A DNA stretch of 32,000 nucleotides from Candidatus Thorarchaeota archaeon (lineage in GTDB: Archaea > Asgardarchaeota > Heimdallarchaeia > Hodarchaeales > Hodarchaeaceae): the NCBI GenBank assembly GCA_048882505.1, contig JBHLRO010000002.1, positions 360,001-392,000 of the forward strand, given 5' to 3'. How positions within the stretch are numbered: position 1 is the first letter of the stretch; each line of letters begins with the position of its first letter. The position numbers and the translations under genes were made by a program. Under the pieces are notes generated by a model. The model was not told where the DNA came from. It ran no database searches and worked only from the letters and a program-made list of their open reading frames with translations. Below are positions 1,754 to 32,000 of the stretch, piece after piece.

Positions 1754-3406
1754 CTATTTCAAAGTTTGATCATATAAAGCAGCTATAGGGTCACCTAGCA
1801 TTCTCCTTCTATCTAGTACATCTTTCTTTTTCAAGTTCATATCAAACTTCCATGGGAATTCCCTTTGCGCTAGAGAGAGATGCTTTCCTACGGCACCATC
1901 TAAGTACCTAAAGAATTTGTCAATATTAGACTTTGAGGTAATAACTATAAACCAATGTAGATTCTGGGGGTATCGCTTATCGATTTTGTGATGGATTTGG
2001 GAATGAATCCCTACTTGGTTTTTCAACAGACTTGTTAGGAATTGTACATCTTCTTTGGAAAAGGAGAGAGTGTATAATGCAATTTGATTGCTACTAAAAT
2101 GTCCGTCGCCAATATACCAATGCAATAAAATGTTAGGAGTCATTTTAAAACTGCGAGGAACAATTTTCCCCTTATCATATAGCCTATACCAGTTTTTAAA
2201 GACATTCGTAAACTGTATTGTAGAGTTTGTTGTTAAATATATCATCCTGCTGTTTTTATTGTTTCTACCCTTTCTAAGATACTTATTTACATTGGTGAGA
2301 TATCCCTCCTGCCGAAACAGGCTTTCAAGTAATTTTATCCAATTAACTTCTAGTATTGATTTATGGATCTGAAAATACGCTGTGGGATGATCAGCAATAA
2401 TTTGGCAACTTTGATTAAACTTACGAACCAGATCCGGAAGATTGTCTATTTTCTCGAGTGATTTTATCTTCTGAAAGCCTTTAAGTCTCTCACATGAATC
2501 TTTATAATCTTCGATCCTCACATTATGGATTCTGTAACTTCTATTTCTAGGTATATTCAATCCTAGTGATCCATCACCTAAAAGCTCACCAATAAGAACT
2601 TCATTAAGGAGAGTGCTCATTTCACGATCAAATTTGGTGTTGTTTACGTGTTCTCTTATCTTTCTCATAGAGGCAGAATTCTGAACCTTAATACCACAAT
2701 TTCTCAGCTTCTTGCCAATATTCTTTCTATCTATATTGAATATTCTTTCTAATGATCTTAATGTCTTTAAATGTAAAAATTCTAGTACCAGCAATTCGTC
2801 TAAAACAGTTTGTACCTCTTTTTCACTAACTTTGAGTTTCAATGATATTTGTCTAGGATTTTTACCCTCTAACAGCATTCTTTTGACATATTCGAATTGA
2901 TTAGGTTTTAGCTTTTCAAATTCATTGTTGAAGGGCCATTTATGTATTGATCTTCGGTTCACCCCAAGCCTCTTAGCAATTTCAGTAATACTAAGGCCTT
3001 CGACCTGTAGATTAATCACCATTTTAATTAGGTCATCTTTAATTAAAGAGATCAATCGTTGCTTATTCAATCCCAACTTAAGAGAAATCTCATCAACGGG
3101 TTTTCCTCTATCTAGCAAATTCAATGCACTTTTTAGTAATTCTTCCCTTTCAATGTTCATCCGTTCTTCTAAAGCTGTTGCTTCTAGTGTTTCTTCCTTT
3201 TTACGTTGTGTTTCACCCTTCTCTCTGATTTTAGTTAATCCGTATTCAGTTATCCGTTTTCGGATGGTAGGTCGGGAAGTGTGAAAATATCGGGCAATAG
3301 CAGAAATTGTTTCCCCTTGTTCAAGAAGATAGGTTAGATCTTTTTTATCAATGTGTTTTTTCATGTTTGTGGGCATGTTTGTAGGTACATACGGCCGTTC
3401 ATACAT
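1754..3406 (-). CDS. LAGLIDADG homing endonuclease (two-motif, LAGLIDADG_2-like) with about five N-terminal helix-turn-helix modules
   Basis: LAGLIDADG helices EVLIGELLGDGSL and ILLHWYIGDGHF, plus downstream IALYTLSFSKEDVQFL. N-terminal HTH-like units: GETISAIARYFHTSRPTIRKR, GKPVDEISLKLGLNKQRL, GLSITEIAKRLGVNRRSIHKW, GKNPRQISLKLKVSEKEV, LRSLERIFNIDRKNIGKKL. Confidence 0.88.
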   Translation of the reverse strand: MYERPYVPTNMPTNMKKHIDKKDLTYLLEQGETISAIARYFHTSRPTIRKRITEYGLTKIREKGETQRKKEETLEATALEERMNIEREELLKSALNLLDRGKPVDEISLKLGLNKQRLISLIKDDLIKMVINLQVEGLSITEIAKRLGVNRRSIHKWPFNNEFEKLKPNQFEYVKRMLLEGKNPRQISLKLKVSEKEVQTVLDELLVLEFLHLKTLRSLERIFNIDRKNIGKKLRNCGIKVQNSASMRKIREHVNNTKFDREMSTLLNEVLIGELLGDGSLGLNIPRNRSYRIHNVRIEDYKDSCERLKGFQKIKSLEKIDNLPDLVRKFNQSCQIIADHPTAYFQIHKSILEVNWIKLLESLFRQEGYLTNVNKYLRKGRNNKNSRMIYLTTNSTIQFTNVFKNWYRLYDKGKIVPRSFKMTPNILLHWYIGDGHFSSNQIALYTLSFSKEDVQFLTSLLKNQVGIHSQIHHKIDKRYPQNLHWFIVITSKSNIDKFFRYLDGAVGKHLSLAQREFPWKFDMNLKKKDVLDRRRMLGDPIAALYDQTLK

Positions 3407-3527: not shown

Positions 3528-3653
3528 AAAGAGACCGGAGGAGGTAGAGAAGCGGGTTCTGACGCTTGGAAGGGTTATATGCGTCGACGAACCAATACTA
3601 TTAATTGGAGTGATGAACTGCCGTTAGCACAGGGGATTAAATTTGGCTCATAA
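3528..3653 (+). pseudogene. Orphaned (probably original) 3' end of the ALDH7-type gene
   Basis: Translates to [41 protein letters not shown] with no start codon. A 25-nt stretch is identical between 3564-3588 and 1660-1684; most other differences are synonymous. Confidence 0.9.
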
Positions 3654-12128: not shown

Positions 12129-13109
12129 TTGACATCTAAAAGAAATCCTATAATTCGCGATTTAACCATTGACGATGAATTTGAGGTGATTAATGCCCAG
12201 GCTTCCGTCAAAGAGGCGGCAGCTAAGATGAAAGAAGGAGGAATTCCTGATCTTGTGGTTATTGACGATAATGATCAGATATTAGGAGTTATTGCTGATT
12301 TCGATATTGTTACAAATATTGTTGCTGAAGGACTATCAACGGAAACTGCAAAGGTCACTGAGGTGATGTATACGATAGAGAGTGTTAACTTGGACACTCC
12401 TGTGGAAACCGCGTTCACTAGAATGCGCGATCTTGATGTGTCAGTTATTCCAGTCATTGATCAGGACAAGCTTGCTGGAGTTGCCACGATTACTGATTGT
12501 TGGGGGATGCTTCCCGAGAAATATGAAGACCAGCGGGGTTTAATAGCGATCAGTAATCCTCGATTCGCTAATTATGCATTTTCGACGTTTTTTACATTCT
12601 TGTACTTTTTGCTTGGAATTGTTGGGCCTCTGGTTGGTATGGTGGGATTCCTCAAGGCACCAATTGCAGGCTCTGCGGTTTATACCGCAACCTATTATCT
12701 ATTCGAGGCCCGCGGAGGTGGATTTTGGATTCGCTATTGGGAATTTACAGGCGATTTCAGCCTTCTATGGCTGGGACTAGCTCTATATGGTGTTATATTC
12801 TTGGTTTTGGGTTTACTTGGTGCTTTTCTTGTTTATTATTGGGCGCAAGCTGATTATAACCTTGTTAAAACGGGTCGGAATTGGGGATCAATAGGGTTAT
12901 TAATTGGTGTTATCAACATAGTCATTGAATGGATTCTATTCTTCATTATTATGTCCCTCGGAGCCCTACGTGTACCTGGAAGTCAAATCACCTTTGATGT
13001 CCTGGGACTTATTGTGAGTGTACTGGCAATCGTGTTTTTAGTACTGGCCGTATCTCGTGACCTAATATTCCGAGATAGAATGAGCGCTGAAAGCGCCGAG
13101 GGGGCCTAA
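12129..13109 (+). CDS. CBS-domain pair fused to a four-helix membrane domain
   Basis: N-terminal CBS repeats (ASVKEAAAKMKE...LVVID..LGVIADFDI; TPVETAFTRM...IPVID..LAGVATITD), followed by four hydrophobic segments. Confidence 0.75.
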   Translation: MTSKRNPIIRDLTIDDEFEVINAQASVKEAAAKMKEGGIPDLVVIDDNDQILGVIADFDIVTNIVAEGLSTETAKVTEVMYTIESVNLDTPVETAFTRMRDLDVSVIPVIDQDKLAGVATITDCWGMLPEKYEDQRGLIAISNPRFANYAFSTFFTFLYFLLGIVGPLVGMVGFLKAPIAGSAVYTATYYLFEARGGGFWIRYWEFTGDFSLLWLGLALYGVIFLVLGLLGAFLVYYWAQADYNLVKTGRNWGSIGLLIGVINIVIEWILFFIIMSLGALRVPGSQITFDVLGLIVSVLAIVFLVLAVSRDLIFRDRMSAESAEGA

Positions 13110-19030: not shown

Positions 19031-19378
19031 TTATTCTTCTTCCTTTTTCATTACTTTCTGTAAATAATTTTCCATCCGATCAAATCTATCAATCCAAAGT
19101 TCTTCGTATTGTTTTATCCAGTCATTGGCTTCCTTAAGAGTCTTTGGGTTTAATTGAGCATATCTAAGTTGTGCCTCTTGAGTACGGCTTATTAATTTGG
19201 CCTTTTGGAGCATTTTTAGATGTTTGGTGATCATAGGTGCACTAACATCGAATGTTTCACCTAACTCGGAAGCAGATGCCTTTCCAAGTTTTAATATTTC
19301 CAGCATTGTACGTCTGACAGGGTGTGATAATGCTGTAAAAACCAAGGACAGTTGATCTGACCGGGTAGTGGTAGACAT
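19031..19378 (-). CDS. ArsR/SmtB-family transcriptional regulator
   Basis: Motifs VFTALSHPVRRTML and SAPMITKHLKMLQKAKLISR, with the C-terminal W...FDRMENYL typical of ArsR regulators paired with SRPBCC genes. Confidence 0.9.
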   Translation of the reverse strand: MSTTTRSDQLSLVFTALSHPVRRTMLEILKLGKASASELGETFDVSAPMITKHLKMLQKAKLISRTQEAQLRYAQLNPKTLKEANDWIKQYEELWIDRFDRMENYLQKVMKKEEE

Positions 19379-21303: not shown

Positions 21304-22866
21304 CTAATGGCTTCTCTCGGAACAAACTGGTCTTCCTCCAACAACTGTGGTCGAAACCAAGCTATCTGTTATTTCTGTGGGATCCATTCTCAATGGGTTG
21401 CTAGTAAGAACAACGAAATCCGCGTATTTTCCGACCGTGATACTGCCCAATTGGGAATCCATGAACAATGCCTTGGCATTCGAAACAGTATATGCTTTTA
21501 ATGCCTCTGATACGGGGATTTTCACCTCTTTTGAAGGAAATGTGGCGGCATAACGTATTCCATAAAAAGGAGAAAGAGGCATATTGTCGGAACCAAAGTT
21601 CAACATATGTCCATGTTCAAGAATTGCGGCAAACCGGTTTAGAGTCATGCACCGATCCTTTCCGAGCCGTTGTTCGTATAATTCTCCAGGGTACTCCCAT
21701 TTTAGAAAATTAGGTTGCATTGAGAGTAGAATTCCGAGCTCTTTTGCTCGTCGAATTTGATCATCAGAAATCATTTCGGCATGTTCGATTCTGTGCTGCC
21801 TTTCCGAAGAGTTGTGACCAGCCGCCTTGATTCCTTTTTCATAACAAGTGAGAAGCCGCTCAATAGCCTGGTCACCTATCGCGTGAATACATATGGTAAG
21901 GCCGTGTTCTTCTGCATGGGAAATTTGATCAATAAGCTCGTCCTCCTCCAAAAACTTGTCACCCTGGTGATCGATGTCAACATATGAGGAATTTAGCAAT
22001 GCCGTTTGAGCCCCTAGGGCACCATCAAAAAATCCCTTGAAACCAGAAAATCGTACCATATGTGAACCCCAGTTTTGTGGAATCCCGAGCCTTGTGAATT
22101 CCCCGATGAGCTCTCTAGTAGGATTTAGAAAAATACGAATCGGGATTTTACCTAAAAGATCCAATTGAAGGTACGTCCGGATGATATATTGTTGGCCCGA
22201 GGGACGAATAGTCAGATTATCTACAACAGCCGTAATTCCTTTAGAGGCCGCAATATGTACTGATTTTTCAATACTGTGAGGCAGTTTATCCTTATAGTAC
22301 GGAATCAGATCCAGCCAAACATCCTTTAAAACTCCAGTGGGATTGCCAGAGATATCTCTCTCCACGCCCGCATGATCAGGAGGAATAGATAATTGTTTTA
22401 GGGCCAATGAATTACACACTACCAGATGTCCGTCCTCACGATACGTATAAACCGGATTATTCGGGCTGATCTCGTCCAGGTCTTGGCGTGAAAGAAATTC
22501 TTTGCGATCCGGCCATCTTGACTCGTCCCATTTGGAGGCAAAGATCCATTCGCCTGGTTGTGCGGCTCTTACCTCCTGCGCAAGGCGATCAATTGTTCCA
22601 CTGTACGTTTGTTCCTGACCGAGGTCAACAGAGATCACCTCGGCTTCTTTCCACAGATGTGTATGTAGATCGATCAAACCAGGAATAATCGTTTTCCCTT
22701 CCAGGTCCCTTACGTTTTCTGCTCGGTCTAGGTAACTAGTCTTATTTGGACCGACGTAGACAAACTTATTCTGGGTAATCCCAATCATTTCGGCAGATTC
22801 ATTTTCAGAATCCATTGTTATGATTTGGGCATTGTAATGGACTTGATCAAAGCTTTTCGGAATCAT
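21304..22866 (-). CDS. Amidohydrolase family 3 (YtcJ-like) protein
   Basis: Motifs IIPGLIDLHTHL, KGFFDGALG, IHAIGDQA, RIEHAE, FGSD and GSITVGKYADFVVL. Confidence 0.9.
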   Translation of the reverse strand: MIPKSFDQVHYNAQIITMDSENESAEMIGITQNKFVYVGPNKTSYLDRAENVRDLEGKTIIPGLIDLHTHLWKEAEVISVDLGQEQTYSGTIDRLAQEVRAAQPGEWIFASKWDESRWPDRKEFLSRQDLDEISPNNPVYTYREDGHLVVCNSLALKQLSIPPDHAGVERDISGNPTGVLKDVWLDLIPYYKDKLPHSIEKSVHIAASKGITAVVDNLTIRPSGQQYIIRTYLQLDLLGKIPIRIFLNPTRELIGEFTRLGIPQNWGSHMVRFSGFKGFFDGALGAQTALLNSSYVDIDHQGDKFLEEDELIDQISHAEEHGLTICIHAIGDQAIERLLTCYEKGIKAAGHNSSERQHRIEHAEMISDDQIRRAKELGILLSMQPNFLKWEYPGELYEQRLGKDRCMTLNRFAAILEHGHMLNFGSDNMPLSPFYGIRYAATFPSKEVKIPVSEALKAYTVSNAKALFMDSQLGSITVGKYADFVVLTSNPLRMDPTEITDSLVSTTVVGGRPVCSERSH

Positions 22867-23147
22867 TTTTCGGGCAGCTCCATTTTTGAGGGCACCACGG
22901 AGCCAGTTTTTTCAAAAGGATACAGTTCTTAACTCCTGAGTCATAGGCATATCGTTGCGGAAGTCATTTGCTCCCGGTTTATATCAACGTTGCTCTGATA
23001 TTTCCGAGATGCCAGGTTCAACAGCTTTTAATGTGCCTATTGATCAAGAGACCAATAGTAAGGAACAATCCTTACAATAAATGTGGTTGAAATCCCACAA
23101 GGTCATAGCCCTTCTTCTACCTTGCCCCATCATGAATAAACCAGGTT

Positions 23148-24257
23148 CTATTTGTTCCAATTTTTGAATACAGGGTCGTTATCTAGAGTCTTATCCCATA
23201 CATCATATATGAACATAAGAGGAAATCCCTCGGAATTTCCGATACAGGCAAACCCGATCTTTGTTTCCTTGTAAAAGCCGATTAGAGAGATACCACCCAC
23301 TATTCCACCAGCGACATTCATGAAAGTTTGCCCTTTGTAACCATCTTTAATACCAATGCCATAGCCCTCGAATGAGTCAGTCTTCAGCATTTTTGTCAGA
23401 TTTTCATCTTTTAGGTATCTTGACAGTTTTTTCTCAATAACACTTGGCTTAAATACTGTTTTCCCGCCTACTGATCCATTGTTCATCAGCATGTCAAGAT
23501 AGATGAGCATTTCATTACACGAAGTCACTATGCCTCCTGGTCCCTTAGTAAATTCTTCAAAGCGATATTCGGATTTAGTGAAAGTCAAATTGCCATATTC
23601 ATCCTTTTTTGGCAAATAAGGGACGGTATGGTTATCATCAATAGATGCTAGTTCTTCATCCCCCAACATGATGGTTCTCTTCATATTCAATGGGGTGAGG
23701 ATTAGGCCTCTCATCGCTTCATCAAAAGATTTCCTTGAGGTTTTTTCCACGATCATCGCAAGGAGGGAGTAGCCGATATTAGAGTACATGAATCTCCCCA
23801 GATCAGCCCTGGAGTCCTTGATTATGCTTGCGACACGCTCTAAATATTCCTCTCTTGTGTATCCCATTCTATCGATAAAAATATCCGGCAAACCAGAAGT
23901 ATGAGTCAATAGGTGATGAATGGTGATAGCTTCCGTACCAGTGCTCGTGGTAATCGAAAGATAATCAGATATGGGATCATCTACTGATAGGTTTCCCTGG
24001 TCTTCTAAGAGGAGGATTGCCAAACTGGTGAATGATTTCGAACCTGAACCGAATCGTGCGAGCGTATCCGCGTTGAAATCTTTGAAATTTTTTATGTCGC
24101 GAAATCCAACGCCAAAAGAATAGATAATTGCTCCATCTTCTATGATAGAAATCGCCATGCCTGGAAATTCTCTATTCTCGAACCTCCTCGTTATTTCTGG
24201 TTCAAAATTTTTTTTGAAGTAGTCAATATCCATGTTTATTACCCTTAGGATTAGCAA
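23148..24257 (-). CDS. Serine hydrolase, beta-lactamase class C-like family
   Basis: SxxK (SGSK), YxN (YSN), HLLTHTSGL and GPGGIVTS. Likely ATG at 24233. Confidence 0.88.
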   Translation of the reverse strand: MLILRVINMDIDYFKKNFEPEITRRFENREFPGMAISIIEDGAIIYSFGVGFRDIKNFKDFNADTLARFGSGSKSFTSLAILLLEDQGNLSVDDPISDYLSITTSTGTEAITIHHLLTHTSGLPDIFIDRMGYTREEYLERVASIIKDSRADLGRFMYSNIGYSLLAMIVEKTSRKSFDEAMRGLILTPLNMKRTIMLGDEELASIDDNHTVPYLPKKDEYGNLTFTKSEYRFEEFTKGPGGIVTSCNEMLIYLDMLMNNGSVGGKTVFKPSVIEKKLSRYLKDENLTKMLKTDSFEGYGIGIKDGYKGQTFMNVAGGIVGGISLIGFYKETKIGFACIGNSEGFPLMFIYDVWDKTLDNDPVFKNWNK

Positions 24258-24265
24258 CCAACAGG

Positions 24266-24409
24266 TGGGGATAAAATCATTATATCACTAAATCCCAAGA
24301 GCTACGAAGCTCGAATCAAAACCTCAGACATGGTTATTCTTCATTGTTATGTGCTCTGTTTCTGCTAACAGATGCAATAATGCATGTTTTCCTTAGAAAG
24401 GCTCTCGAG
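24266..24409 (+). pseudogene. Decayed paralogue of the 3' end of the RAMP-HD gene at 27977-28795
   Basis: 24281-24406 translates YITKSQELRSSNQNLRHGYSSLLCALFLLTDAIMHVFLRKAL, against YIYKSKELSLLNESLNYGHSSLRYHLLLITNLIVQDFLRGAL at 28667-28792: 21/42 identical with no gaps. In-frame TAA at 24272. Confidence 0.8.
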
Positions 24410-24517
24410 GTGTTCTTTGTGTAGAATAATCGGAGTAACGTTGTTTTGCTTATGAAACTAGAAGGCGTGCAAGTAAAATGTCAAAGGTTTCTGTTGCAGT
24501 CCCCCATTCTAGGAGGA
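24410..24517 (+). repeat. Copy A of the conserved non-coding element found 3' of the RAMP-HD gene
   Basis: 24439-24504 matches 28825-28890 at 57/66 nt without gaps. Both copies have GTGTT plus a 24-nt variable block before the core and a GC hairpin after it. Confidence 0.75.
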
Positions 24518-24634
24518 GAATTTCGGATACGTGGTCGAGTAGGTAACCTCCAACCAATTGCGGTTCATTTGAAGGACATTAGTTGGGATACCACTCAGTT
24601 ATATCCATTATTTCGCTCTATGGAGCGAAAACGG

Positions 24635-24962
24635 TCACTTGATGTTGTTTCGAAATCTGTCGAGTATATAAAAGGCGCTCGCCATCATATGTAAAGTTTT
24701 GAGGTTTTGCCTATGACTATGAATATCCCTGATATAACTGAGTAATTGGTCCTTGAAGGGGGTCTTCCTCGGCTGGAACCCCTTGATACAGACTACTCCT
24801 CGCACTCCAGCCCGCGGGGTCATTAACGAAAAAATTCCCGCGTGTGCTTGAGTGCCATGAATACCGTGGGAGGATCTTTGAGACCACACGGTGGACCTTG
24901 ACTTCCTCAAACGTATCCGCATCATACAGAATTTTCACCTGACCCCCCCGAGAGGGCTTCAT
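24635..24962 (-). pseudogene. Possible frameshifted small ORF
   Basis: ATG at 24962 lies 16 nt after the 24979 stop. Two overlapping minus-strand frames (24717-24962, 24635-24925) could join at a T6 run near 24830. No motif. Confidence 0.2.
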
Positions 24963-24978
24963 TCGTTGATAAACCGTC

Positions 24979-25770
24979 TTAACCAGGATCGCTTGACTCC
25001 AGGTATGTCGTAAGGAGTCCTAGAATTCCAGAGGTAAGAAACCCGCCGCCTAACGCAGCAAGCGGAAGGTATTGCCATTGTGTTCCCTTAGGAGCAAATG
25101 TGGTAGCGAAGAGGAAAACAAACCCCAACAGAAGAACGCTGGTAGAAAGCAGGCGAATGCTGTGAAAGAACCATGCTGGTGTTCTCCATTTGCTTTTTTG
25201 CCTAAGAGAGATGAACATGTAAGTGAAGAACACAGGTGATAAAAACAGCAGTAGTATCATCCACCCCTCGAGTGGAATAGATTGTAATATTTCTATCGGG
25301 TTTCCATTATTACCAAAGACCTCAATTTCACAGGTGAATATGTTGGTACCCGCCCCTAGCACCGTTGCCTGGAGCTTTATAGTAAGGATTTTCGAGGTGT
25401 AGGTTTCAAAGCTTTTGATTGGCTCTTCTTGGGACGTAACATCTAAGATTCCCCCAGGAGCAAGCATCAGATCTAACAGAATGATTCCAAGGTCAAAATC
25501 AAAGGTGCCTATTGTTATGTTGATATTCCCTGGGTTTGATGGCATAGACGAAATCACTATCTGCTGGATATGATGTACGTTTTTAGTTCGATGAATATAT
25601 TCACTATCACTGAATTGAACCATTTCTTGGGACGTATACTGTTGATCTGACAGCACCCACCCCCCCATTAGCCCTAGGGCAAATACCGAAACAGCAAGTA
25701 ATCCTATTGCCTGGTTTCGTTGAAGATGCAACCCTAATCGTGGAGAAAGCTGCATGTCATTTCCGCTCAA
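24979..25770 (-). CDS. Hypothetical membrane protein (one N-terminal and three C-terminal TM helices)
   Basis: 263-aa ORF with clear hydrophobic segments. Confidence 0.6.
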   Translation of the reverse strand: MSGNDMQLSPRLGLHLQRNQAIGLLAVSVFALGLMGGWVLSDQQYTSQEMVQFSDSEYIHRTKNVHHIQQIVISSMPSNPGNINITIGTFDFDLGIILLDLMLAPGGILDVTSQEEPIKSFETYTSKILTIKLQATVLGAGTNIFTCEIEVFGNNGNPIEILQSIPLEGWMILLLFLSPVFFTYMFISLRQKSKWRTPAWFFHSIRLLSTSVLLLGFVFLFATTFAPKGTQWQYLPLAALGGGFLTSGILGLLTTYLESSDPG

Positions 25771-25815
25771 AATAACCCATCATACGTGGACAGATCAACT
25801 CAACTTCCAATTTGG

Positions 25816-27351
25816 TCAATTATACGTGGACAAATCAACTTCATTTACAGTTTGGCTGTGCATTACATAAGCCCCGGAGGTCCTACTCATAATATACCCA
25901 GTCAGATCCCCAGTTATATGATTGGCATTAAAAGTATGAAGTGTCTCATGCATAGTACCTAGGGTTTGATCCCTCATGAATGGAAATATCCAAATAAAAT
26001 ATCCCTTCATCATGATTGCCTTGTTAGAGTGGCCAGGGCTGTTTAGTCCTGCCACCATTCCATTTGTATTATATTGATTAATATTCGCGAAAAGAAGATC
26101 AAACCCATGATTTTTAGAACTTGTCCCATGGGAACTTTCCCAATCACCTGATAAACCCAAGAGGTCCTTCGCTTTTGGTGCCATTTTGTTGTGGATGAGG
26201 TCATAGATATCGTTTGAGGGAGGATCCCATGTAAACACCATGCTACGAAAGTCCATAGCAAATAAGGTTCGTAAATCAGTAAGTTGTTGGTTGTACCAAA
26301 AGTCTATTAGTTCAATAGTCGTATCAAACCAAGCATTTTCATCGAATTGAATTCTGAACGCTTGATCCACCAAATGAGTTACAAAGACAACGTGAGTTCC
26401 AGACGCGGGGTCATTGACATCAAAATTCCCATGTGCGCTTGAGGGGTAGTAATTGTCACTCCAAGTCCCAGGTGCCCCAGAACCGAGGGCATAAACCCGT
26501 GTTATATCGTAATTACCTCTGTTCAAGGCGTATCTTTTTACTGGAGTCCCAGGAGAGGTGAACATGTAGTCCAAGTAGTCATGTACCACCAGAGTCATAC
26601 CAGATTCTATCCAGCCATTTTCACTATACGTTGGTGTATCATCTTCCCAAGAATTATAGGTATTGCCTTTAATTGTATATAACAAGTACTGTAGAAAGGC
26701 GAAATAGGTAGTAGGATTATATATATACGTCTTAACGTGTTCTGCTTGGCCTTTCTCAGAATCATAGGCGTAAAAACTACTTATGTAAGGGCTACTGGAT
26801 GTAACTGCAGCGCCTCCACCAGCAGTTTGGCTTTCTTGATTTGGTGGCCATTGAGGAGTTATTTCCACTGAATGACGCATTGTGCCAAAGTTCATTTTAA
26901 AGAAAAAGTGCCTGGGTAACAGGGTTGTATTAAGAGTTCTTAAGGCGAACACAACTCGGAAACTGGTACTATTCTCAGCTTTTTCTAGCGTAGTTCCGTT
27001 CGATAGCATCTTGATAACCGGGGATCCATTAGTAAGAGTTTCCATATCAAATGTGTCAGGGATTTGGAGGGAAATATCGGCATCAACCACTGAGACCCCC
27101 GTTTTGGTGCCAGTCAACTGAATTGTGAGGTCACCGTGGTCGTTAACCTCGTAAATCACCGATTCGATGCTAATACTCGCAGGTAGTGAGAAGCTTGCAA
27201 CAATGGCACTTATTGCAATAGCTGTTAACACGAATAGCGCACCTATTCGAAACATGTTATGATACGTGTATTGTTTGGTCTTATTTTTCATCTTTTCACC
27301 TTCAACCTCAGGTTTTTTGATCTCCATCGCTTCCTCGGAGACTTTCTCCAC
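25816..27351 (-). CDS. Secreted or membrane-anchored metzincin-like zinc metalloprotease
   Basis: N-terminal hydrophobic anchor IGALFVLTAIAISAIVASF. C-terminal HETLHTFNANH (HExxHxxxxxH), followed by a Met-turn-like YIMS. Confidence 0.65.
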   Translation of the reverse strand: MEKVSEEAMEIKKPEVEGEKMKNKTKQYTYHNMFRIGALFVLTAIAISAIVASFSLPASISIESVIYEVNDHGDLTIQLTGTKTGVSVVDADISLQIPDTFDMETLTNGSPVIKMLSNGTTLEKAENSTSFRVVFALRTLNTTLLPRHFFFKMNFGTMRHSVEITPQWPPNQESQTAGGGAAVTSSSPYISSFYAYDSEKGQAEHVKTYIYNPTTYFAFLQYLLYTIKGNTYNSWEDDTPTYSENGWIESGMTLVVHDYLDYMFTSPGTPVKRYALNRGNYDITRVYALGSGAPGTWSDNYYPSSAHGNFDVNDPASGTHVVFVTHLVDQAFRIQFDENAWFDTTIELIDFWYNQQLTDLRTLFAMDFRSMVFTWDPPSNDIYDLIHNKMAPKAKDLLGLSGDWESSHGTSSKNHGFDLLFANINQYNTNGMVAGLNSPGHSNKAIMMKGYFIWIFPFMRDQTLGTMHETLHTFNANHITGDLTGYIMSRTSGAYVMHSQTVNEVDLSTYN

Positions 27352-27424
27352 CCTGAAGATCGCTAGTGATTGGCCCGATCCAATATTTAAGGATTTTGAA
27401 CGCTAATGTCCAATATTTATAGCG

Positions 27425-27871
27425 ATGACCACTGATAAAGAAGCCGATAAACATGGGAATGTCTTACTTCCAGAAGGCCTTCATCTCTTAGGAAGCTGTC
27501 TTGCTGGCGAAAAAGAATGCATTCTCCATCAAATCTTTGGCTCCAAAGGGATTGAAGGTAAAATTTCTGTTTACGCAGATCCTATTGCTTCTATATCCCA
27601 CAAAACCGCTAGATTATCTGAATCCATTCAACATGTCCATATCGCTTCTGAGAATCGGATTAACTTGACCTATGATGGTAAAACAACACAGGATTTCAAA
27701 GAACGCTATTTTTCTGGCTATTTCAACTTTGAAATTGATGTGACCCATTGCTCTCCTCAACAGATCGGCTTAGTCATTGAAGGAGCTGTAGCTTTTGATA
27801 GACTAGGCCGAGGTTTCAATACGGGGTATGGTCGAGTTGAGGTCAAAAAACTCCAGTTGCTCAAACGGTGA
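27425..27871 (+). CDS. Cas7-group RAMP protein, apparently 5'-truncated
   Basis: GSC...ECILHQIFGS, thumb-like HIASENRINL and Gly-rich loop RLGRGFNTGYGRVEV, all Csm3/Cas7-like. Only 148 aa, with an in-frame stop at 27404-27406 upstream. Confidence 0.65.
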   Translation: MTTDKEADKHGNVLLPEGLHLLGSCLAGEKECILHQIFGSKGIEGKISVYADPIASISHKTARLSESIQHVHIASENRINLTYDGKTTQDFKERYFSGYFNFEIDVTHCSPQQIGLVIEGAVAFDRLGRGFNTGYGRVEVKKLQLLKR

Positions 27872-28059
27872 AAAAAACACCTGTGTTCGATAATAATGGC
27901 TCCTTTACTGTCCAGAAGAACATCACTGAAGGAGCCTTAGAAACAATGTTCAAGAACGCCCTTGAGGTCTGGCAAAATGGAACTCACGCTCGAAGGGAAA
28001 ATTCTGACTCCCATTATCACGAAGAAAACCATGTTCGAATTAGAGGGCTGTCGTGCTGA
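27868..28059 (+). CDS. Small ORF, or frameshifted C-terminus of the Cas7-like protein
   Basis: GTG overlaps the Cas7 TGA. One extra G would fuse ...LLKR to VKKTPVFD...ALEVWQN. Overlaps the next gene by 83 nt. Confidence 0.35.
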   Translation: MKKTPVFDNNGSFTVQKNITEGALETMFKNALEVWQNGTHARRENSDSHYHEENHVRIRGLSC

Positions 28060-28795
28060 GATCATCACACCGAAGCGGAGGTTCATAACTAAATCCCATA
28101 AGAAACGGAAGATTCATCCCTTCTCTTTCATCGGTTATCTGGGGAGGATCCAATTAACATACAGATGTCAGACCATGCAGCAAGCGAAAGGAAAATTGCA
28201 AACTTTACTACTAATCGATAGTATTGGGAGATTCTGGAGGGAAGGATTAGGACGGGTAGAATGGTTGTCAGGAGAAGTTGGTTCCCAATTTAAACCTAGG
28301 AAAAAGAAATATTTTAGACGCGTAAAAGTCCGCCAAGGGTTACCTCATCACCTCCCCATTCATATTCAGAAACTAATTCGTTATGCCCTACTCCATGATT
28401 TTGTGCATACCTCTAAGCATAAATCCAAAATTTATGGGGAAATCAAGGTTGAAGATCTAAATGAGATCAAAAACCACCATGAAATGTCCGAGAATCCCTT
28501 GATTCAACAGTTTCAGAAGTACGATCGGATTGCCGCCAGGATGACGCGTAACATCCGTTCCCCCCGCACCAATTGCTATACTTGGGAAGCGAAGGGAACA
28601 GTGAATTTTAAAACCTTAGCGCATAAGATCGAACAGGTAGAAAGTAATGTATGGAGATTATATGGATACATCTATAAGTCAAAAGAGTTAAGCCTGTTAA
28701 ACGAAAGCTTAAATTATGGGCATTCCTCTTTGCGATATCACTTATTGTTGATCACGAATTTAATAGTGCAAGACTTTCTTAGAGGAGCTCTCTAA
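27977..28795 (+). CDS. RAMP (Cas5-like) domain fused to an HD nuclease domain
   Basis: RAMP-like start MELTLEGKILTP and Gly loop IGRFWREGLGRVEW. HD motifs ALLHDF, NHH and YDRIAA. The C-terminal SLRYHLLL His resembles the permuted His of Cas10-type HD domains. The ORF track starts at TTG 27962; ATG 27977 is more likely. Confidence 0.65.
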   Translation: MELTLEGKILTPIITKKTMFELEGCRAEIITPKRRFITKSHKKRKIHPFSFIGYLGRIQLTYRCQTMQQAKGKLQTLLLIDSIGRFWREGLGRVEWLSGEVGSQFKPRKKKYFRRVKVRQGLPHHLPIHIQKLIRYALLHDFVHTSKHKSKIYGEIKVEDLNEIKNHHEMSENPLIQQFQKYDRIAARMTRNIRSPRTNCYTWEAKGTVNFKTLAHKIEQVESNVWRLYGYIYKSKELSLLNESLNYGHSSLRYHLLLITNLIVQDFLRGAL

Positions 28796-28899
28796 GTGTT
28801 TCCTGCACATTACAGGCAGAATTCCGTTGGTTTGCTTATGAGATGAGAAGGCGTGGAAGCAAAACGTCAAAGGTTTCTGCTCCAGTCCCCGTTTCGGGG
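28796..28899 (+). ncRNA. Candidate structured non-coding RNA or element end (copy B) immediately 3' of the RAMP-HD gene
   Basis: 57/66 nt identity with copy A. Stem TTTGCTT(28831-37)/AAGCAAA(28857-63) and terminal hairpin CCCCG-TTT-CGGGG (28887-28899). Transcription is not shown. Confidence 0.45.
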
Positions 28900-28914
28900 C
28901 ATCCTTAAGAAAAA

Positions 28915-29496
28915 GTGACGAAAATGGCCACAAATGAAGAAAAAGAAAGGTCATACGGCGACCTACTAGAGGAGCTGTATGATGGCATCATACATCTACA
29001 TGGATCATTATATGAGCCTGATGAGCAATATCGTCGATTGGTTGCGATTGAAGAATCATTAGAAACTGTCCTCAACTGGATAAAGCTAGAAAAGAACAGT
29101 CTGAGGAACTATGAAATCATGGTAGAGTGGACAAAGAAACTTGCTCTAAACACTACTCTTACTACAGCTGATATTCGAAATAGGTTGCGAGTGATGGTTT
29201 TACCCCAGGCTGAATCGTTTATTCAGAATTTAATCACAGGAGAACGCAGCGCCCTTAAGGTTTTGGAAGTAGTAAACAAAAATTTGGAAGAATTACCGTT
29301 TTTTCTCAAATCTGTCAAAGACCAGAACTTTAAATTACTTCAAGCAATTGGATATGACCCAGAGGCAGAGACCTCGTATCTTGAAACTGCGCTATACAAT
29401 TTGGTAATTGGCAGATTAATGGAGTTCGAAAAATCGATTGATTTACTTCGGGCTGCGGCCAAACAAAGTACACAGATAAGTAGAGACATATTATAG
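28915..29496 (+). CDS. Hypothetical alpha-helical protein
   Basis: 193-aa ORF, likely ATG at 28924. No motif recognised. Confidence 0.6.
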   Translation: MTKMATNEEKERSYGDLLEELYDGIIHLHGSLYEPDEQYRRLVAIEESLETVLNWIKLEKNSLRNYEIMVEWTKKLALNTTLTTADIRNRLRVMVLPQAESFIQNLITGERSALKVLEVVNKNLEELPFFLKSVKDQNFKLLQAIGYDPEAETSYLETALYNLVIGRLMEFEKSIDLLRAAAKQSTQISRDIL

Positions 29497-29638
29497 ATAC
29501 CAAAGAAAAACGGTGTAAAGCCAAGTTACCTCCTCAGAACGCAAAAGTACGGGTCTACATCTCTTCATTTGGTGGAAAAGATTTCTGATCTCTCCTAATT
29601 ACCTCCCCTAGCTAAGAACTAAAATCAGGTGCAGAGTC

Positions 29639-31474
29639 ATGAAAAGTAAAAATCCCAAACTTCTGTTTATTCAAAGTATTGCACAACAGGCTCGTCGAAT
29701 GGAGCATGAAATATCCCTGGAAGCCAAATCAGTCGTTAAAAACTTGCAACAGAGGCCCAAATCGTATTATACACTCCAAGATGTGGAGGATGTCATTGAA
29801 GGGTTAAAAACAAAGATGCTAAGTTTAAATAAAGAAACCCACACTGAATTTTCAAAAAAAGGAATTAAAAGCTTAACGAATCTAGCAGATACTGAAATCG
29901 AAAAAATCTCACTAGAGATGCTTGCTTCTGGAGAGGAGGTGAAAAACATTTTAGAAGAACTAGAAACGGTTCGGGAAGAGCTTAAAGTTGTTTCGAAAGA
30001 ACGAGACGAACTCCAAGCCAAAGAGGCAGATATTCAACCGTTACGACTGGAGATCGAAAACCTTCGAATGCTTCTTGGCAAAAGAGATGAGGAGATCGCA
30101 CAATTGAAGAGTCAATCAGGGGTTTTTTCGGGGAAAGTAGAGGATCAAATGCAGGAGCTTAATCGTCTTCAGGAACAACTAGATGAAAGTCAACGAGATT
30201 TAAAGCAAGCCCGGAAGGAGCGCGAAAAAATCGAGGCTGAATTTGAAACGGTTGGCAACACTCTTATGACCACAAGGCTGGAGATTGAAGAACTCCAAAC
30301 CGCCTTGGCGAATAAAGACATTGAAATCGAGAACCTAAAAGCCGAGAATAAGGTTTTGGTTTCCCATACCGAGGAAAACGTTCATCTCAAAGATGAAAAT
30401 CAAAAACTTGGCGAAAGACTTGACCAGTTGAAAACTCAGTTTCAGGACGTAAGTAGACAAAAAACCATGTACGAGGCAACTGTCAATGAACTCAAGGAAC
30501 AAATTTCTCGACTGGAGCAAGAAAACGAGGATCTGCTTTTAGACTCTGGTGAGACCAGTCAAACGGCTGTAACGCTCAAAAATCAGTTAGACAATATAAA
30601 AAGTCAGTTAAATCAAAAAGAAAGTGAAATTCGGGAGATTACAAATCGTTTGGGAGGCGAAATTACTGCGTTAAAGGAAGAACTAGTTGAGAAATTAGCG
30701 CGAACCCAGACGGTTCAAAATAAACTGGATGAAGCCAATGAGGCCATGGAAGAACTAAGAAGGAAAAATCGCGCACTTGAGACCGAAGTGGAGGACATAA
30801 AGGTCGATCAGAAAGGGAAAAACCTTCGTATTGATTCTATTGAATCTGAGCGCGATAAATTGCGTAACCAACTTGCAGATGCAAGAATCGAGAACGAACA
30901 GCAAAAATCAGAGATTTCTAATCTCCAATCTCAAGTAAAAGCCCGTGAGCGGGAGCTGAATGTACTCCAAAATGATCTAGAAGTTATACGTCAACGTCAA
31001 GAGGAAATCGCTAAACAAGCTTCTGATTCTCGTGGAGCCAAGGCGGAAGTTGAGCGTCAAAAGGATTTATATGAGGTGCAACTCCAGAATCTTCAGTTAC
31101 AGATCGAAGATATCACAGAATCTAAAGAAAACCTTGAAAGAAAGCTTGAGGATTCAGCAAAAGAACTAGTAAGAAAGAACGACGAAATCGAGTCGTTAAT
31201 GACCAACCAAAAGCGGTTGGGGACTAGGAACGAAAAACTTTCTGCGGCAGTGGAAACGTTACGTATTAATCTTGCAAAGAATCCGAAATATGCAATTCTT
31301 TTCGTCTTACAAGACATAAAACAGGCTAGCGTCGGTGAACTAGCAAAAACCGTTGCTATCCAGCTGGTTTTTGCGGTGCGTTTGGTAAAAGAACTTGAGT
31401 CCGATGGATGGGTAGATTTCGATGAAGACCAAGGTATTGTTCGATTAAAGCGACCATTATTAGAAAATGATTAG
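29639..31474 (+). CDS. Long coiled-coil protein with a C-terminal winged-helix domain
   Basis: About 450 aa of E/K/Q/L-rich heptads. C-terminal NPKYAILFVLQDIKQASVGELAKTV...RLVKELESDGWVDFD. No Walker motifs. Confidence 0.8.
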   Translation: MKSKNPKLLFIQSIAQQARRMEHEISLEAKSVVKNLQQRPKSYYTLQDVEDVIEGLKTKMLSLNKETHTEFSKKGIKSLTNLADTEIEKISLEMLASGEEVKNILEELETVREELKVVSKERDELQAKEADIQPLRLEIENLRMLLGKRDEEIAQLKSQSGVFSGKVEDQMQELNRLQEQLDESQRDLKQARKEREKIEAEFETVGNTLMTTRLEIEELQTALANKDIEIENLKAENKVLVSHTEENVHLKDENQKLGERLDQLKTQFQDVSRQKTMYEATVNELKEQISRLEQENEDLLLDSGETSQTAVTLKNQLDNIKSQLNQKESEIREITNRLGGEITALKEELVEKLARTQTVQNKLDEANEAMEELRRKNRALETEVEDIKVDQKGKNLRIDSIESERDKLRNQLADARIENEQQKSEISNLQSQVKARERELNVLQNDLEVIRQRQEEIAKQASDSRGAKAEVERQKDLYEVQLQNLQLQIEDITESKENLERKLEDSAKELVRKNDEIESLMTNQKRLGTRNEKLSAAVETLRINLAKNPKYAILFVLQDIKQASVGELAKTVAIQLVFAVRLVKELESDGWVDFDEDQGIVRLKRPLLEND

Positions 31475-31525
31475 GTAGTAGTTCTTTCGAATTGTCAGCT
31501 TATCCAGTGGTTGGAGTGACCCGTT

Positions 31526-32000
31526 GTGGATATTGAAACCATAACAAGAGAATGTCAACTTAACCTTGTCGGCCTGGAGACTGAAATTCGATTAATACTC
31601 GCTGCCATTGAAAACCAAATTGCAGTGGTCATTGAGGGAGAATCAGGCACAGGAAAGACGGAACTTGCGAAAACAATAGCAAATGCCTTGCGGCGTCCTT
31701 TTTATCGTGTTGATGGGGATGAAAATCTGACCATCACCCACCTTAGGGGTTGGTTTGACCCTCCCCTTGTCATGCAGTCAGGATTTGGGGAAAAAAGTTT
31801 CATCCCTGGGCCTCTTGTTAAAGCAATGCAAGAAGGAGGTTTTTTTTTCTTTAACGAGGTCAATAGGGCACCCAGTGAGGCAATAAATGGTGTCTTAGCT
31901 GCGATGGATAGGACAGAACGCCAAATAGAGATTCCACAACTATCTCGGATTACGGCTGCCGAAAAATTTTATTCCATATTTACGCTTAATCCTGCTGCCT
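31526..32000 (+). CDS. MoxR/CbbQ-like AAA+ ATPase (partial, runs off the window)
   Basis: Own translation from GTG 31526: Walker A IEGESGTGKTELA, FIPGPLVKAMQEGG, Walker B variant FFFFNEVNRAP, and FTLNP. Confidence 0.85.
   Translation, partial: MDIETITRECQLNLVGLETEIRLILAAIENQIAVVIEGESGTGKTELAKTIANALRRPFYRVDGDENLTITHLRGWFDPPLVMQSGFGEKSFIPGPLVKAMQEGGFFFFNEVNRAPSEAINGVLAAMDRTERQIEIPQLSRITAAEKFYSIFTLNPAA

Follow-up and report, generated by a model that had tools for sequence, protein, structure and literature searches.

The DNA analysed here, referred to as the window, is a stretch of 32,000 nt from an Asgard archaeal genome (G000, contig C2:360001-392000) and carries on its + strand a pair of CRISPR-derived genes, encoding a Cas7-like protein and a Cas5-like/HD nuclease, the second of which runs into a conserved structured element at 28762-28909 that is a candidate ARAMP-associated RNA. 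The locus is best explained as belonging to ARAMP (Asgard RAMP), a type III-related CRISPR derivative without arrays, and as having partly decayed. Whilst the protein module is of this known kind, the gene-linked candidate RNA is the unreported part, with no RNA partner of ARAMP reported in the literature found, including PMC8730458 and PMC12669027. We put at about even the chance that the element is the RNA ligand of a complex of the Cas7-like and Cas5-HD proteins, replacing the CRISPR RNA (crRNA) of an array, and this is the best of the readings considered because RAMP domains bind RNA and because the element stays with the RAMP-HD gene in every subgroup, with a sequence that is specific to the subgroup.

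A sequence-only reading of the same DNA had described a structured element directly after the nuclease gene that was repeated behind a paralogous relic, and both parts of that description stand, with 28825-28890 recurring at 24439-24504 (86% identity over 66 nt, E 8e-18). Its extent was underestimated, as the element is ~150 nt long and covers about 28762-28909 (+), beginning inside the HD gene, of which it overlaps the last 34 nt, and running on for ~115 nt beyond it. It matches the covariance model R1 with 138 bits (E 3e-25) and its minimum free energy fold reproduces the consensus helices. In the outer stem GTGCA, which lies in the conserved ...IVQD codons, pairs with TGCAC 3' of the gene, and inside this stem hairpin P0 (28778-28796) is formed around the stop codon TAA (28793-28795), with arms that vary between copies yet stay complementary (TTAGAG/CTCTAA, TTCAAAG/CTTTGAA, TTCAAC/GTTGAA). 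In the consensus fold a linker follows between the P0 region and a long hairpin, P1 + P2 (28815-28881), which is supported by covariation and has a conserved apical loop with GAGAAGG, with CCGTTG before it and AAAGGTTTCTGC after it. Comparison of the copies then gives a short G+C hairpin, P3 (28885-28900), whose loop varies in length, and a near-invariant single-stranded tail, ATCCTTAAG (28901-28909); in the folded RNA the short hairpin has the tail AUCCUUAAG behind it.

The helices are supported by an alignment that knew nothing of them. In a structure-blind MAFFT alignment of 14 copies 77% of cells are paired, against 38-50% in slid controls, 22 pairs are compensatory, and none of 500 shuffles reaches any of these measures. 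Within P2 98% of cells are paired and 7 of the 9 pairs are compensatory (MAFFT alignment A4), with pairing at 93% in 40 copies. The core helices contain 140 G·U against 19 A·C (7:1), and from this excess it follows that the gene-sense strand is the one that folds, as is expected of an RNA transcribed with the gene. Rfam holds no family that matches the element, with a permissive scan of the whole window giving one weak and unrelated match at 12258-12341 (E 0.5). Two other ARAMP subgroups have conserved hairpin-rich downstream elements of their own, each with GAGAA(A)GG, and in the element of the subgroup found in Borrarchaeum the substitutions are compensatory in the RNA and non-conservative in the overlapping reading frame. 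The long open reading frames (ORFs) that cluster across the Borrarchaeum loci are read-through of this RNA element and are not proteins. At one Borrarchaeum locus (L017:6998-7285) a gene for a GIY-YIG nuclease begins right after the conserved element of that subgroup.

It had also been proposed that the downstream element is conserved at homologous loci, and this is borne out, as it follows homologous genes in other genomes too. A covariance model built from the 14 copies finds nine matches in the genome, six of them on contig C2 (at 70.7, 93.2, 97.9, 99.5, 384.4 and 388.8 kb) and one each on C24, C27 and C28, the last being weak; across the order 13 of 24 genomes carry the element, with 33 matches in total. 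It always lies in the orientation of the gene. Metagenome contigs yield only 4 matches, each after the end of an HD gene, and viral contigs yield none, so that a viral origin was discarded. The relatives hold 26 copies, of which ~6 have a complete or almost complete HD gene in front of them, 10 have just the 3' portion of one (starting at residues 137-231) and ~10 have no HD gene at all; about 20 of the 26, together with most copies in this genome, thus sit behind a 5'-truncated HD gene or none, and no 5' fragment of the module was found that lacks the element. At C2:93242-99682 (locus L004) three copies occur on one strand within 6.5 kb, with an Orc1/Cdc6 gene starting 15 nt after the second and a weakly GINS/PSF3-like gene 2 nt after the third.

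The gene that leads into the element (27977-28795, +) is intact and encodes a protein of 272 aa, with its start placed at ATG 27977 and not at TTG 27962 because the homologues show so. The AlphaFold (AF2) model of this protein, with a predicted local distance difference test score (pLDDT) of 82, has two domains, a Cas5-like RAMP domain (residues 1-108) and a Cas10-type HD nuclease domain (residues ~127-272). When the model was compared with the PDB by Foldseek only weak matches were obtained (E >= 0.007), nearly all of them CRISPR RAMPs, and therefore an exhaustive fold search of 48,161 chains (VIA) was needed; a profile of the HD protein family found no match among PDB sequences. By VIA, residues 1-108 match CRISPR RAMP subunits with Z 8.2-7.3, among them chains of Csm (Z 8.2), type IV-A Csf (8.1), Cmr-beta (8.0) and type I-A Cascade (7.5), with CRISPR RAMPs filling almost all of the top 24 rows, and Cas6 chains score nearly as high (Z 7.0-7.3). 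The N-terminal domain is a single RRM of ~100 residues with a clear RAMP fold, and Cmr3 and Cas6 entries are among its AlphaFold DB clusters.

Residues 127-272 find their best VIA match in the HD domain of Csm1/Cas10 (6mua_A residues 1-218, Z 6.6, root mean square deviation 3.6 over 127 residues). H140 and D141, H148, H167 and H168, H249 and H255 are invariant in 32 homologues and D183 is nearly so, with the window protein keeping all of them. No conserved His precedes the HD dyad in these homologues, which fits the Cas10-type order, and the permuted, Cas10-like His of the sequence-only reading is in agreement with this, as its Cas7 and HD assignments are with the structure checks and its Cas5-like one is as regards the RAMP fold.

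The Cas7-like gene directly 5' of it, which the sequence-only reading had listed as part of the module, is present here as a frameshifted fragment. The ORF at 27425-27871 (+) contains the middle and C-terminal core of the protein with the G-rich loop, and is recognised by the PADLOC model of Csm3 (E 1.8e-5, over model positions 81-185 of 208 only), by alignment with its homologues (A5) and by its 48% identity to a paralogue on contig C24; neither window protein has a match in Pfam or NCBIfam. It lacks the first ~105 residues, which are present in all 25 aligned homologues (in alignment A5 it starts at column ~149), and with them the conserved motifs TPIAKPLNG and KG.RG..RH, and the truncated 5' end abuts a divergent gene of 511 aa. 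The C-terminal tail (27868-27990, +) is reached only by a -1 frame change and aligns with homologue tails ending ...EVWQNG, the last 38 residues requiring the change at 27868, as the first frame stops at TGA 27869-27871, just 5' of an A7 run at 27870-27876. The three + strand ORFs within 27425-28795 are 27425-27871 (148 aa), 27868-28059 (63 aa, in the -1 frame) and 27962-28795. The frameshift may be a real mutation or an assembly error in the homopolymer; the 5' truncation cannot be explained by such an error.

The identity of the family is clearer from its full-length members, which match Csm3 models with E 2.6e-9 to 4e-10 and also match models of type IV Cas7, Cmr1 and gRAMP, as well as Pfam RAMPs (E 0.0018). 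The only place in this genome where both genes are intact is contig C24, with a 297-aa Cas7-like protein and a 273-aa RAMP-HD protein that are 48% and 51% identical to their window counterparts. The AF2 model of this Cas7-like protein (pLDDT 85.6, predicted template modelling score 0.82) has 129 PDB matches at E<=1e-3 by Foldseek, the best at 4.6e-7, with nothing but Cas7 subunits (types IV-A, VII, III-A, I-A and III-E) at the top of the list. Two adjacent same-strand RAMP genes, the second fused to an HD domain, are therefore present as the sequence-only reading had it, by PADLOC, AF2 models and fold searches alike. At most, the window copy could provide the HD protein and the RNA; with a Cas7-like gene that is both truncated and frameshifted it is unable to work alone.

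The intact C24 pair was also submitted to a complex predictor, where it scored 0.79 against 0.13 for the best control, a mark that 58 of 80 solved complexes reach and 2 of 110 mismatched pairs. In three runs at least 73% of contacts were common and the pLDDT of the partner was at least 76, with the predicted Cas7-like contact falling on the RAMP domain, at residues 8-102. Because Cas5-Cas7 complexes have already been solved, the pass may reflect likeness to these, and binding of the two proteins is to be read as a prediction of the model.

The protein folds, the invariable pairing of the genes, covariation of the kind seen in RNA and the joint occurrence of gene and element are what the analysis shows. 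We infer that the element would be transcribed with, or from within, the HD gene, and would give on the gene strand a folded RNA of ~150 nt consisting of a stop-codon hairpin, the long hairpin with its GAGAAGG loop, and the short hairpin with AUCCUUAAG. The RAMP domains would bind the conserved single-stranded motifs of this RNA, and the HD domain would be the effector nuclease. It is possible, and we think rather doubtful, that the gene-linked RNA goes further and serves as a cofactor that bears specificity, with the Cas5-like domain holding a tag (e.g. hairpin + AUCCUUAAG), the Cas7-like protein coating the adjoining RNA and the HD domain cutting nucleic acid that matches it, so that each module would work from one built-in RNA instead of an array; modules might also be gained or lost at boundaries that the same folded element marks. 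The last hairpin with its 9-nt tail resembles the hairpin and 8-nt tag of the genome's own CRISPR repeat, which is only a lead.

A number of observations weigh against an RNA ligand in place of crRNA. The element is mostly helical, unlike a crRNA, and no clear hypervariable, guide-like segment was found among its copies, so that the RNA-guided nuclease of the sequence-only reading is a step that the copies do not bear out. A guide located after the tail was rejected, as none of the 36-nt stretches that follow the tail at the 9 genome copies is matched elsewhere in the genome above chance; a companion 24-nt block that had been put forward as spacer-like was rejected as well, since it holds conserved and paired bases, namely TTGCAC, pairing with GTGCAA in the gene, and CAGAA, pairing with TTCTG. 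Single copies fold with no better energy than shuffled sequences on either strand (z -1.6 to +0.6), and for this reason the case for an RNA rests on covariation. A set of 40 distinct copies from 13 related genomes has 83% of cells paired and 38 of 40 pairs compensatory in a 42-copy alignment that was fitted to the model and that favours the model's structure.

Also to be counted on that side is what has become of the copies that stand without a gene. The relic (24251-24523, +) consists of a remnant of the HD C-terminus (24251-24406; tblastn 44% over 52 aa) and a second copy of the element (24376-24523; R1 99.6 bits) that has lost its tail. This copy is 75% identical to its orthologue in a relative, where flanking genes and spacer are 87-96% identical, and the orthologue has lost the GAGAAGG motif. 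As it is less conserved than its flanks the relic must be decaying, and solo copies look like decaying remnants, which weakens the idea that solo elements are trans-acting RNA genes under selection. A same-genus genome (G014, contig C78) is collinear at ~90% with 21413-24511 and 28917-32000 only and lacks the 4.4 kb in between (24512-28916), where the window has a metalloprotease-like gene with fragments of it, the HD gene with the main element, and the broken gene for the Cas7-like protein. This difference, which may be either an insertion or a deletion, has one boundary within the final hairpin of the relic's copy and the other 8 nt beyond the tail of the main copy, and such boundaries at both copies hint at a role in recombination. 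In about 12 of the 40 copies, moreover, a same-strand ORF begins between -2 and +24 nt from the tail, including the 193-aa gene of the window (GTG 28915 or ATG 28925), and the element could therefore have a cis role for the neighbouring gene.

These points have to be set against the alternatives that they favour. The element might act purely in cis on the mRNA of the nuclease, forming a folded 3' end by which the transcript is terminated, stabilised or made to regulate itself, for instance through binding of the RAMP domain to it as an operator, which we consider possible and on balance improbable. That the element overlaps the stop codon and the last codons, always in gene orientation, is what would be expected of such a 3' end, and so is the apparent decay of solo copies just described, with the relic at 75% beside flanks at 87-96% and GAGAAGG missing from its orthologue. 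However, ~150 nt with invariant single-stranded motifs (CCGTTG, the GAGAAGG loop, AAAGGTTTCTGC and ATCCTTAAG) far exceeds what a terminator needs, each ARAMP subgroup keeps an elaborate element of its own, and archaeal terminators are usually oligo-T whereas no such run is conserved after the element. The cis role could lie in the other direction, with the element carrying the promoter or 5' untranslated region of the gene downstream and its link to the RAMP genes positional only. The closely spaced ORFs, the 193-aa gene among them, speak for this, as do several P3 loops that are A+T-rich at about -26 from those starts, but the P3 loop of the window (GTTT) has no TATA-like sequence and most copies have no close gene. 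Where a gene does start near the tail it is one of unrelated families (an MKW...EAP family, the 193-aa family, Orc1/Cdc6 and others), and the element co-varies with the ARAMP subgroup and not with the downstream gene, making a leader the least probable of the explanations considered, and a very improbable one.

A role in DNA rather than RNA is unlikely. On this view a cassette that moves or recombines would have the element as its folded 3' end, much as integrons have attC sites and rolling-circle transposons their ends, and a Cas1-type integrase or another recombinase would use it, with the truncated copies as footprints of such events. The copies behind 5'-truncated HD genes or none (about 20 of 26 in relatives), the want of any 5' fragment without an element, the 4.4-kb indel bounded by two copies, the new genes that often begin a few nt from the tail and the Cas1 encoded at some ARAMP loci all point that way. 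Yet neither a terminal inverted repeat, an inverted partner copy nor a target-site duplication was found, a reverse complement of the tail at 27387 was dismissed as being of chance frequency only, and viral contigs hold no match. There is no sign of recent movement, because paralogues of one genome, at about 50% protein identity, are old, and no recognisable integrase adjoins the window's subgroup. That G·U exceeds A·C 7:1 fits an RNA on the transcribed strand, and the 5' truncation can also be explained by selection that removes deletions into a useful element. It could lastly be supposed that crRNAs from a distant CRISPR array load the RAMP-HD complex and that the element has nothing to do with RNA loading. 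The sequence-only reading had named RNA from such an array as the outcome that would go against it, and in this regard the window itself has no array, but the genome does have an array stub elsewhere. The stub lies at a contig edge (C61:1-190, locus L047), has at least 3 repeats of 37 nt ending ATTGAAAT and adjoins HerA-like genes; it is the sole array stub of the genome and its contig differs from that of the module. Together with a canonical Cas1 outside the window (locus L006, on C55, a separate 6.8-kb contig; E 5e-68), and with the fact that many type III-B, III-C and IV loci are also without arrays of their own (PMC12669027), this lends the supposition some substance. Set against it are the number of ARAMP modules, up to nine or more in a genome and each with a subgroup-specific element, and the lack of a Cas6 gene or repeat-like sequence near any module. 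No effector genes are assembled alongside the C61 stub or the C55 Cas1, and the Pfam RAMP model finds no other RAMP gene in the genome, from which it follows that the array's own effector is either unassembled or absent. Loading from a distant array is thus a quite remote prospect, and an RNA ligand encoded with the module is the reading we prefer.

As for the proteins themselves, searching 5.8 billion proteins gave 93 relatives of the HD protein, and all the named ones come from Asgard metagenome-assembled genomes (MAGs), where they are annotated as hypothetical and occur several per genome. The named hosts are Heimdall-, Hod-, Thor-, Hermod-, Odin- and Promethearchaeota MAGs, with genus-level relatives of the window genome also carrying the module. 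A scan of one genome per species gave 35 loci, with Candidatus Borrarchaeum weybense accounting for at least 9 and a single Heimdallarchaeota MAG for at least 6. By ORF clustering the Cas7-like gene is directly 5' of the HD gene in 33 of these Asgard loci, with the other two cut off or without the gene, and no CRISPR array or Cas6 was found near the module at the 35 loci inspected. For the window, scans of all large ORFs with the hidden Markov models of PADLOC, Pfam and NCBIfam and a repeat search likewise revealed no cas1, cas2, cas6, large subunit or repeat array, just as the sequence-only reading had it; of Cas10 there is only the HD part, with no large subunit with palm domains.

The same reading had called the module minimal, and this does not hold for intact loci. 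In the subgroup of the window these have three further conserved genes, the first divergent and of ~1000-1230 aa, with no Pfam, PADLOC or Atlas assignment, the second of 150-250 aa and DUF559/PD-(D/E)xK-like by eye only, and the third of ~240 aa with a C-terminal half that is PIN-like in a low-confidence Atlas model. The Borrarchaeum subgroup has instead an upstream DEAD-box helicase of 1323 aa whose C-terminus matches Cas1 (E 9e-7), making it a helicase-Cas1 fusion, and neither the window nor the loci of its subgroup have a Cas1. The nucleases seen at these ARAMP-like loci are the HD fused to the RAMP and a GIY-YIG gene after one Borrarchaeum locus, with no HNH nuclease among them.

Of the genes around the module, the divergent 511-aa gene (25816-27351, -) encodes a protein that has a membrane segment at its N-terminus, carries an HETLH (HExxH) motif and finds no match in Pfam; 40 nt of the gene occur again at 24813-24852 (83% identity), within the region 24635-24962 (-), and in another genome (L009) its relative lies directly upstream of a truncated HD gene. 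Downstream are a 611-aa coiled-coil protein with a MarR-type winged helix at its end (29639-31474, +) and, next to it, a MoxR-type AAA ATPase (31526-32000, +), both conserved with a relative genome and unrelated to the module. At a distance of 8 kb from the module, a gene at 19031-19378 (-) encodes a protein of 115 aa that resembles models of the Csa3/CasR regulators in their winged-helix part (E 9e-13) and has no CARF domain. Further away a homing-endonuclease-like gene (1754-3406, -; PADLOC HEase E 3e-13) sits between 116-nt direct repeats (1627-1742 and 3531-3646, 82% identity), which agrees with a duplicated gene end reported at first reading.

The importance of the element lies mainly in what it may say about ARAMP. 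The 2025 classification of CRISPR systems treats ARAMP and HRAMP as array-less and type III-derived, of unknown mechanism, and a covarying RNA linked to the nuclease gene is a concrete candidate for the RNA partner of ARAMP. Should the RNA be a cofactor, ARAMP would stand beside VIPR in showing that RAMP effectors can run on gene-linked RNAs and not on arrays, and it would be a very small effector of class 1 type, of two proteins with about 570 residues in total. If the element is a recombination site, it would explain how the module has multiplied and decayed in Asgard genomes. Taken by itself the window is of smaller value, its broken copy and relic being a record of module gain and loss; what it adds is a dated gain or loss event with an element copy at each boundary, direct evidence for the decay of solo copies, and the finding that genes downstream frequently begin right after the tail.

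In comparison with known systems the module is closest to ARAMP, which is reportedly first described by Makarova, Wolf, Shmakov, Liu, Li and Koonin in 2020 (CRISPR J 3:156). Published summaries characterise ARAMP as Asgard CRISPR derivatives that have homologues of Cas5 and Cas7 and, in most cases, a distinct Cas1 (PMC8730458), and as array-less, type III-derived and associated with nucleases such as HNH, PD-(D/E)xK and others (PMC12669027). The gene pair fits these summaries and is filed under ARAMP on that basis, as the sequence-only reading had rightly suggested. Shared features are the Asgard hosts, a diverged Cas7 that is nearest to type III and the absence of an array, and probably also a diverged Cas5 and an association with nucleases, with the distinct Cas1 of many loci being represented here by the helicase-Cas1 fusion of the Borrarchaeum subgroup. 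Unlike the published description, the window copy is decayed and has no Cas1 nearby, and the missing Cas1 does not exclude membership because the published wording is 'most' loci. A further difference is that the summaries name no RNA, whereas here a structured element is found at the 3' end of the Cas5-like/HD gene in every subgroup examined. HRAMP, for which the description is said to be that of Makarova et al. in 2019 (FEMS Microbiol Lett 366:fnz079), is similar in being array-less and in having diverged Cas5 and Cas7 homologues, nucleases and uncharacterised proteins, but differs in its host group and has no RNA partner in published summaries, the comparison being by description only. It is a haloarchaeal module and is said to be distantly related to ARAMP (PMC8730458).

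With the effectors of type III and type IV-C (Csm3/Csm4/Cas10, and Csf2/Csf3 with an HD-bearing large subunit) the module has in common the Cas7 backbone fold, a Cas5-type RAMP and a Cas10-type HD, and the predicted contact between Cas7 and RAMP resembles Cas5-Cas7 packing. It differs from them in having no Cas10 palm/cyclase domains, Cas11, Cas6 or array, and in that the HD is fused straight to one RAMP domain of ~100 residues; the candidate RNA is also long, mostly helical and gene-linked, and is not a repeat-spacer unit. The omega-RNAs of TnpB and IscB are structured RNAs that overlap the 3' end of the nuclease gene and extend past it. The element is like these in lying across the end of a nuclease gene and in that decayed gene copies keep the RNA region, and unlike them in that the proteins are unrelated, there are no transposon ends or transposase, and a 3' guide is only hypothetical here. 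The remaining comparison is with VIPR, in which an array-less RAMP, Vipr, lies beside its own vrRNAs, which have an invariant structured 3' tail (bioRxiv 10.64898/2026.04.26.720920). The protein in VIPR is one primitive single-RRM RAMP and its vrRNAs are made of 9-16 YNNGG repeats, with the systems being mostly viral (bioRxiv 10.64898/2026.04.26.720920), whereas the proteins of the present module are Cas7-like and Cas5-like. Repeats of the VIPR type were looked for and dismissed, as neither the window nor 618 kb of related loci has a run of at least 4 YNNGG units on one strand or the other. The two systems would be alike in combining an array-less RAMP with a gene-linked RNA, and VIPR is in this respect the nearest experimental precedent outside CRISPR.

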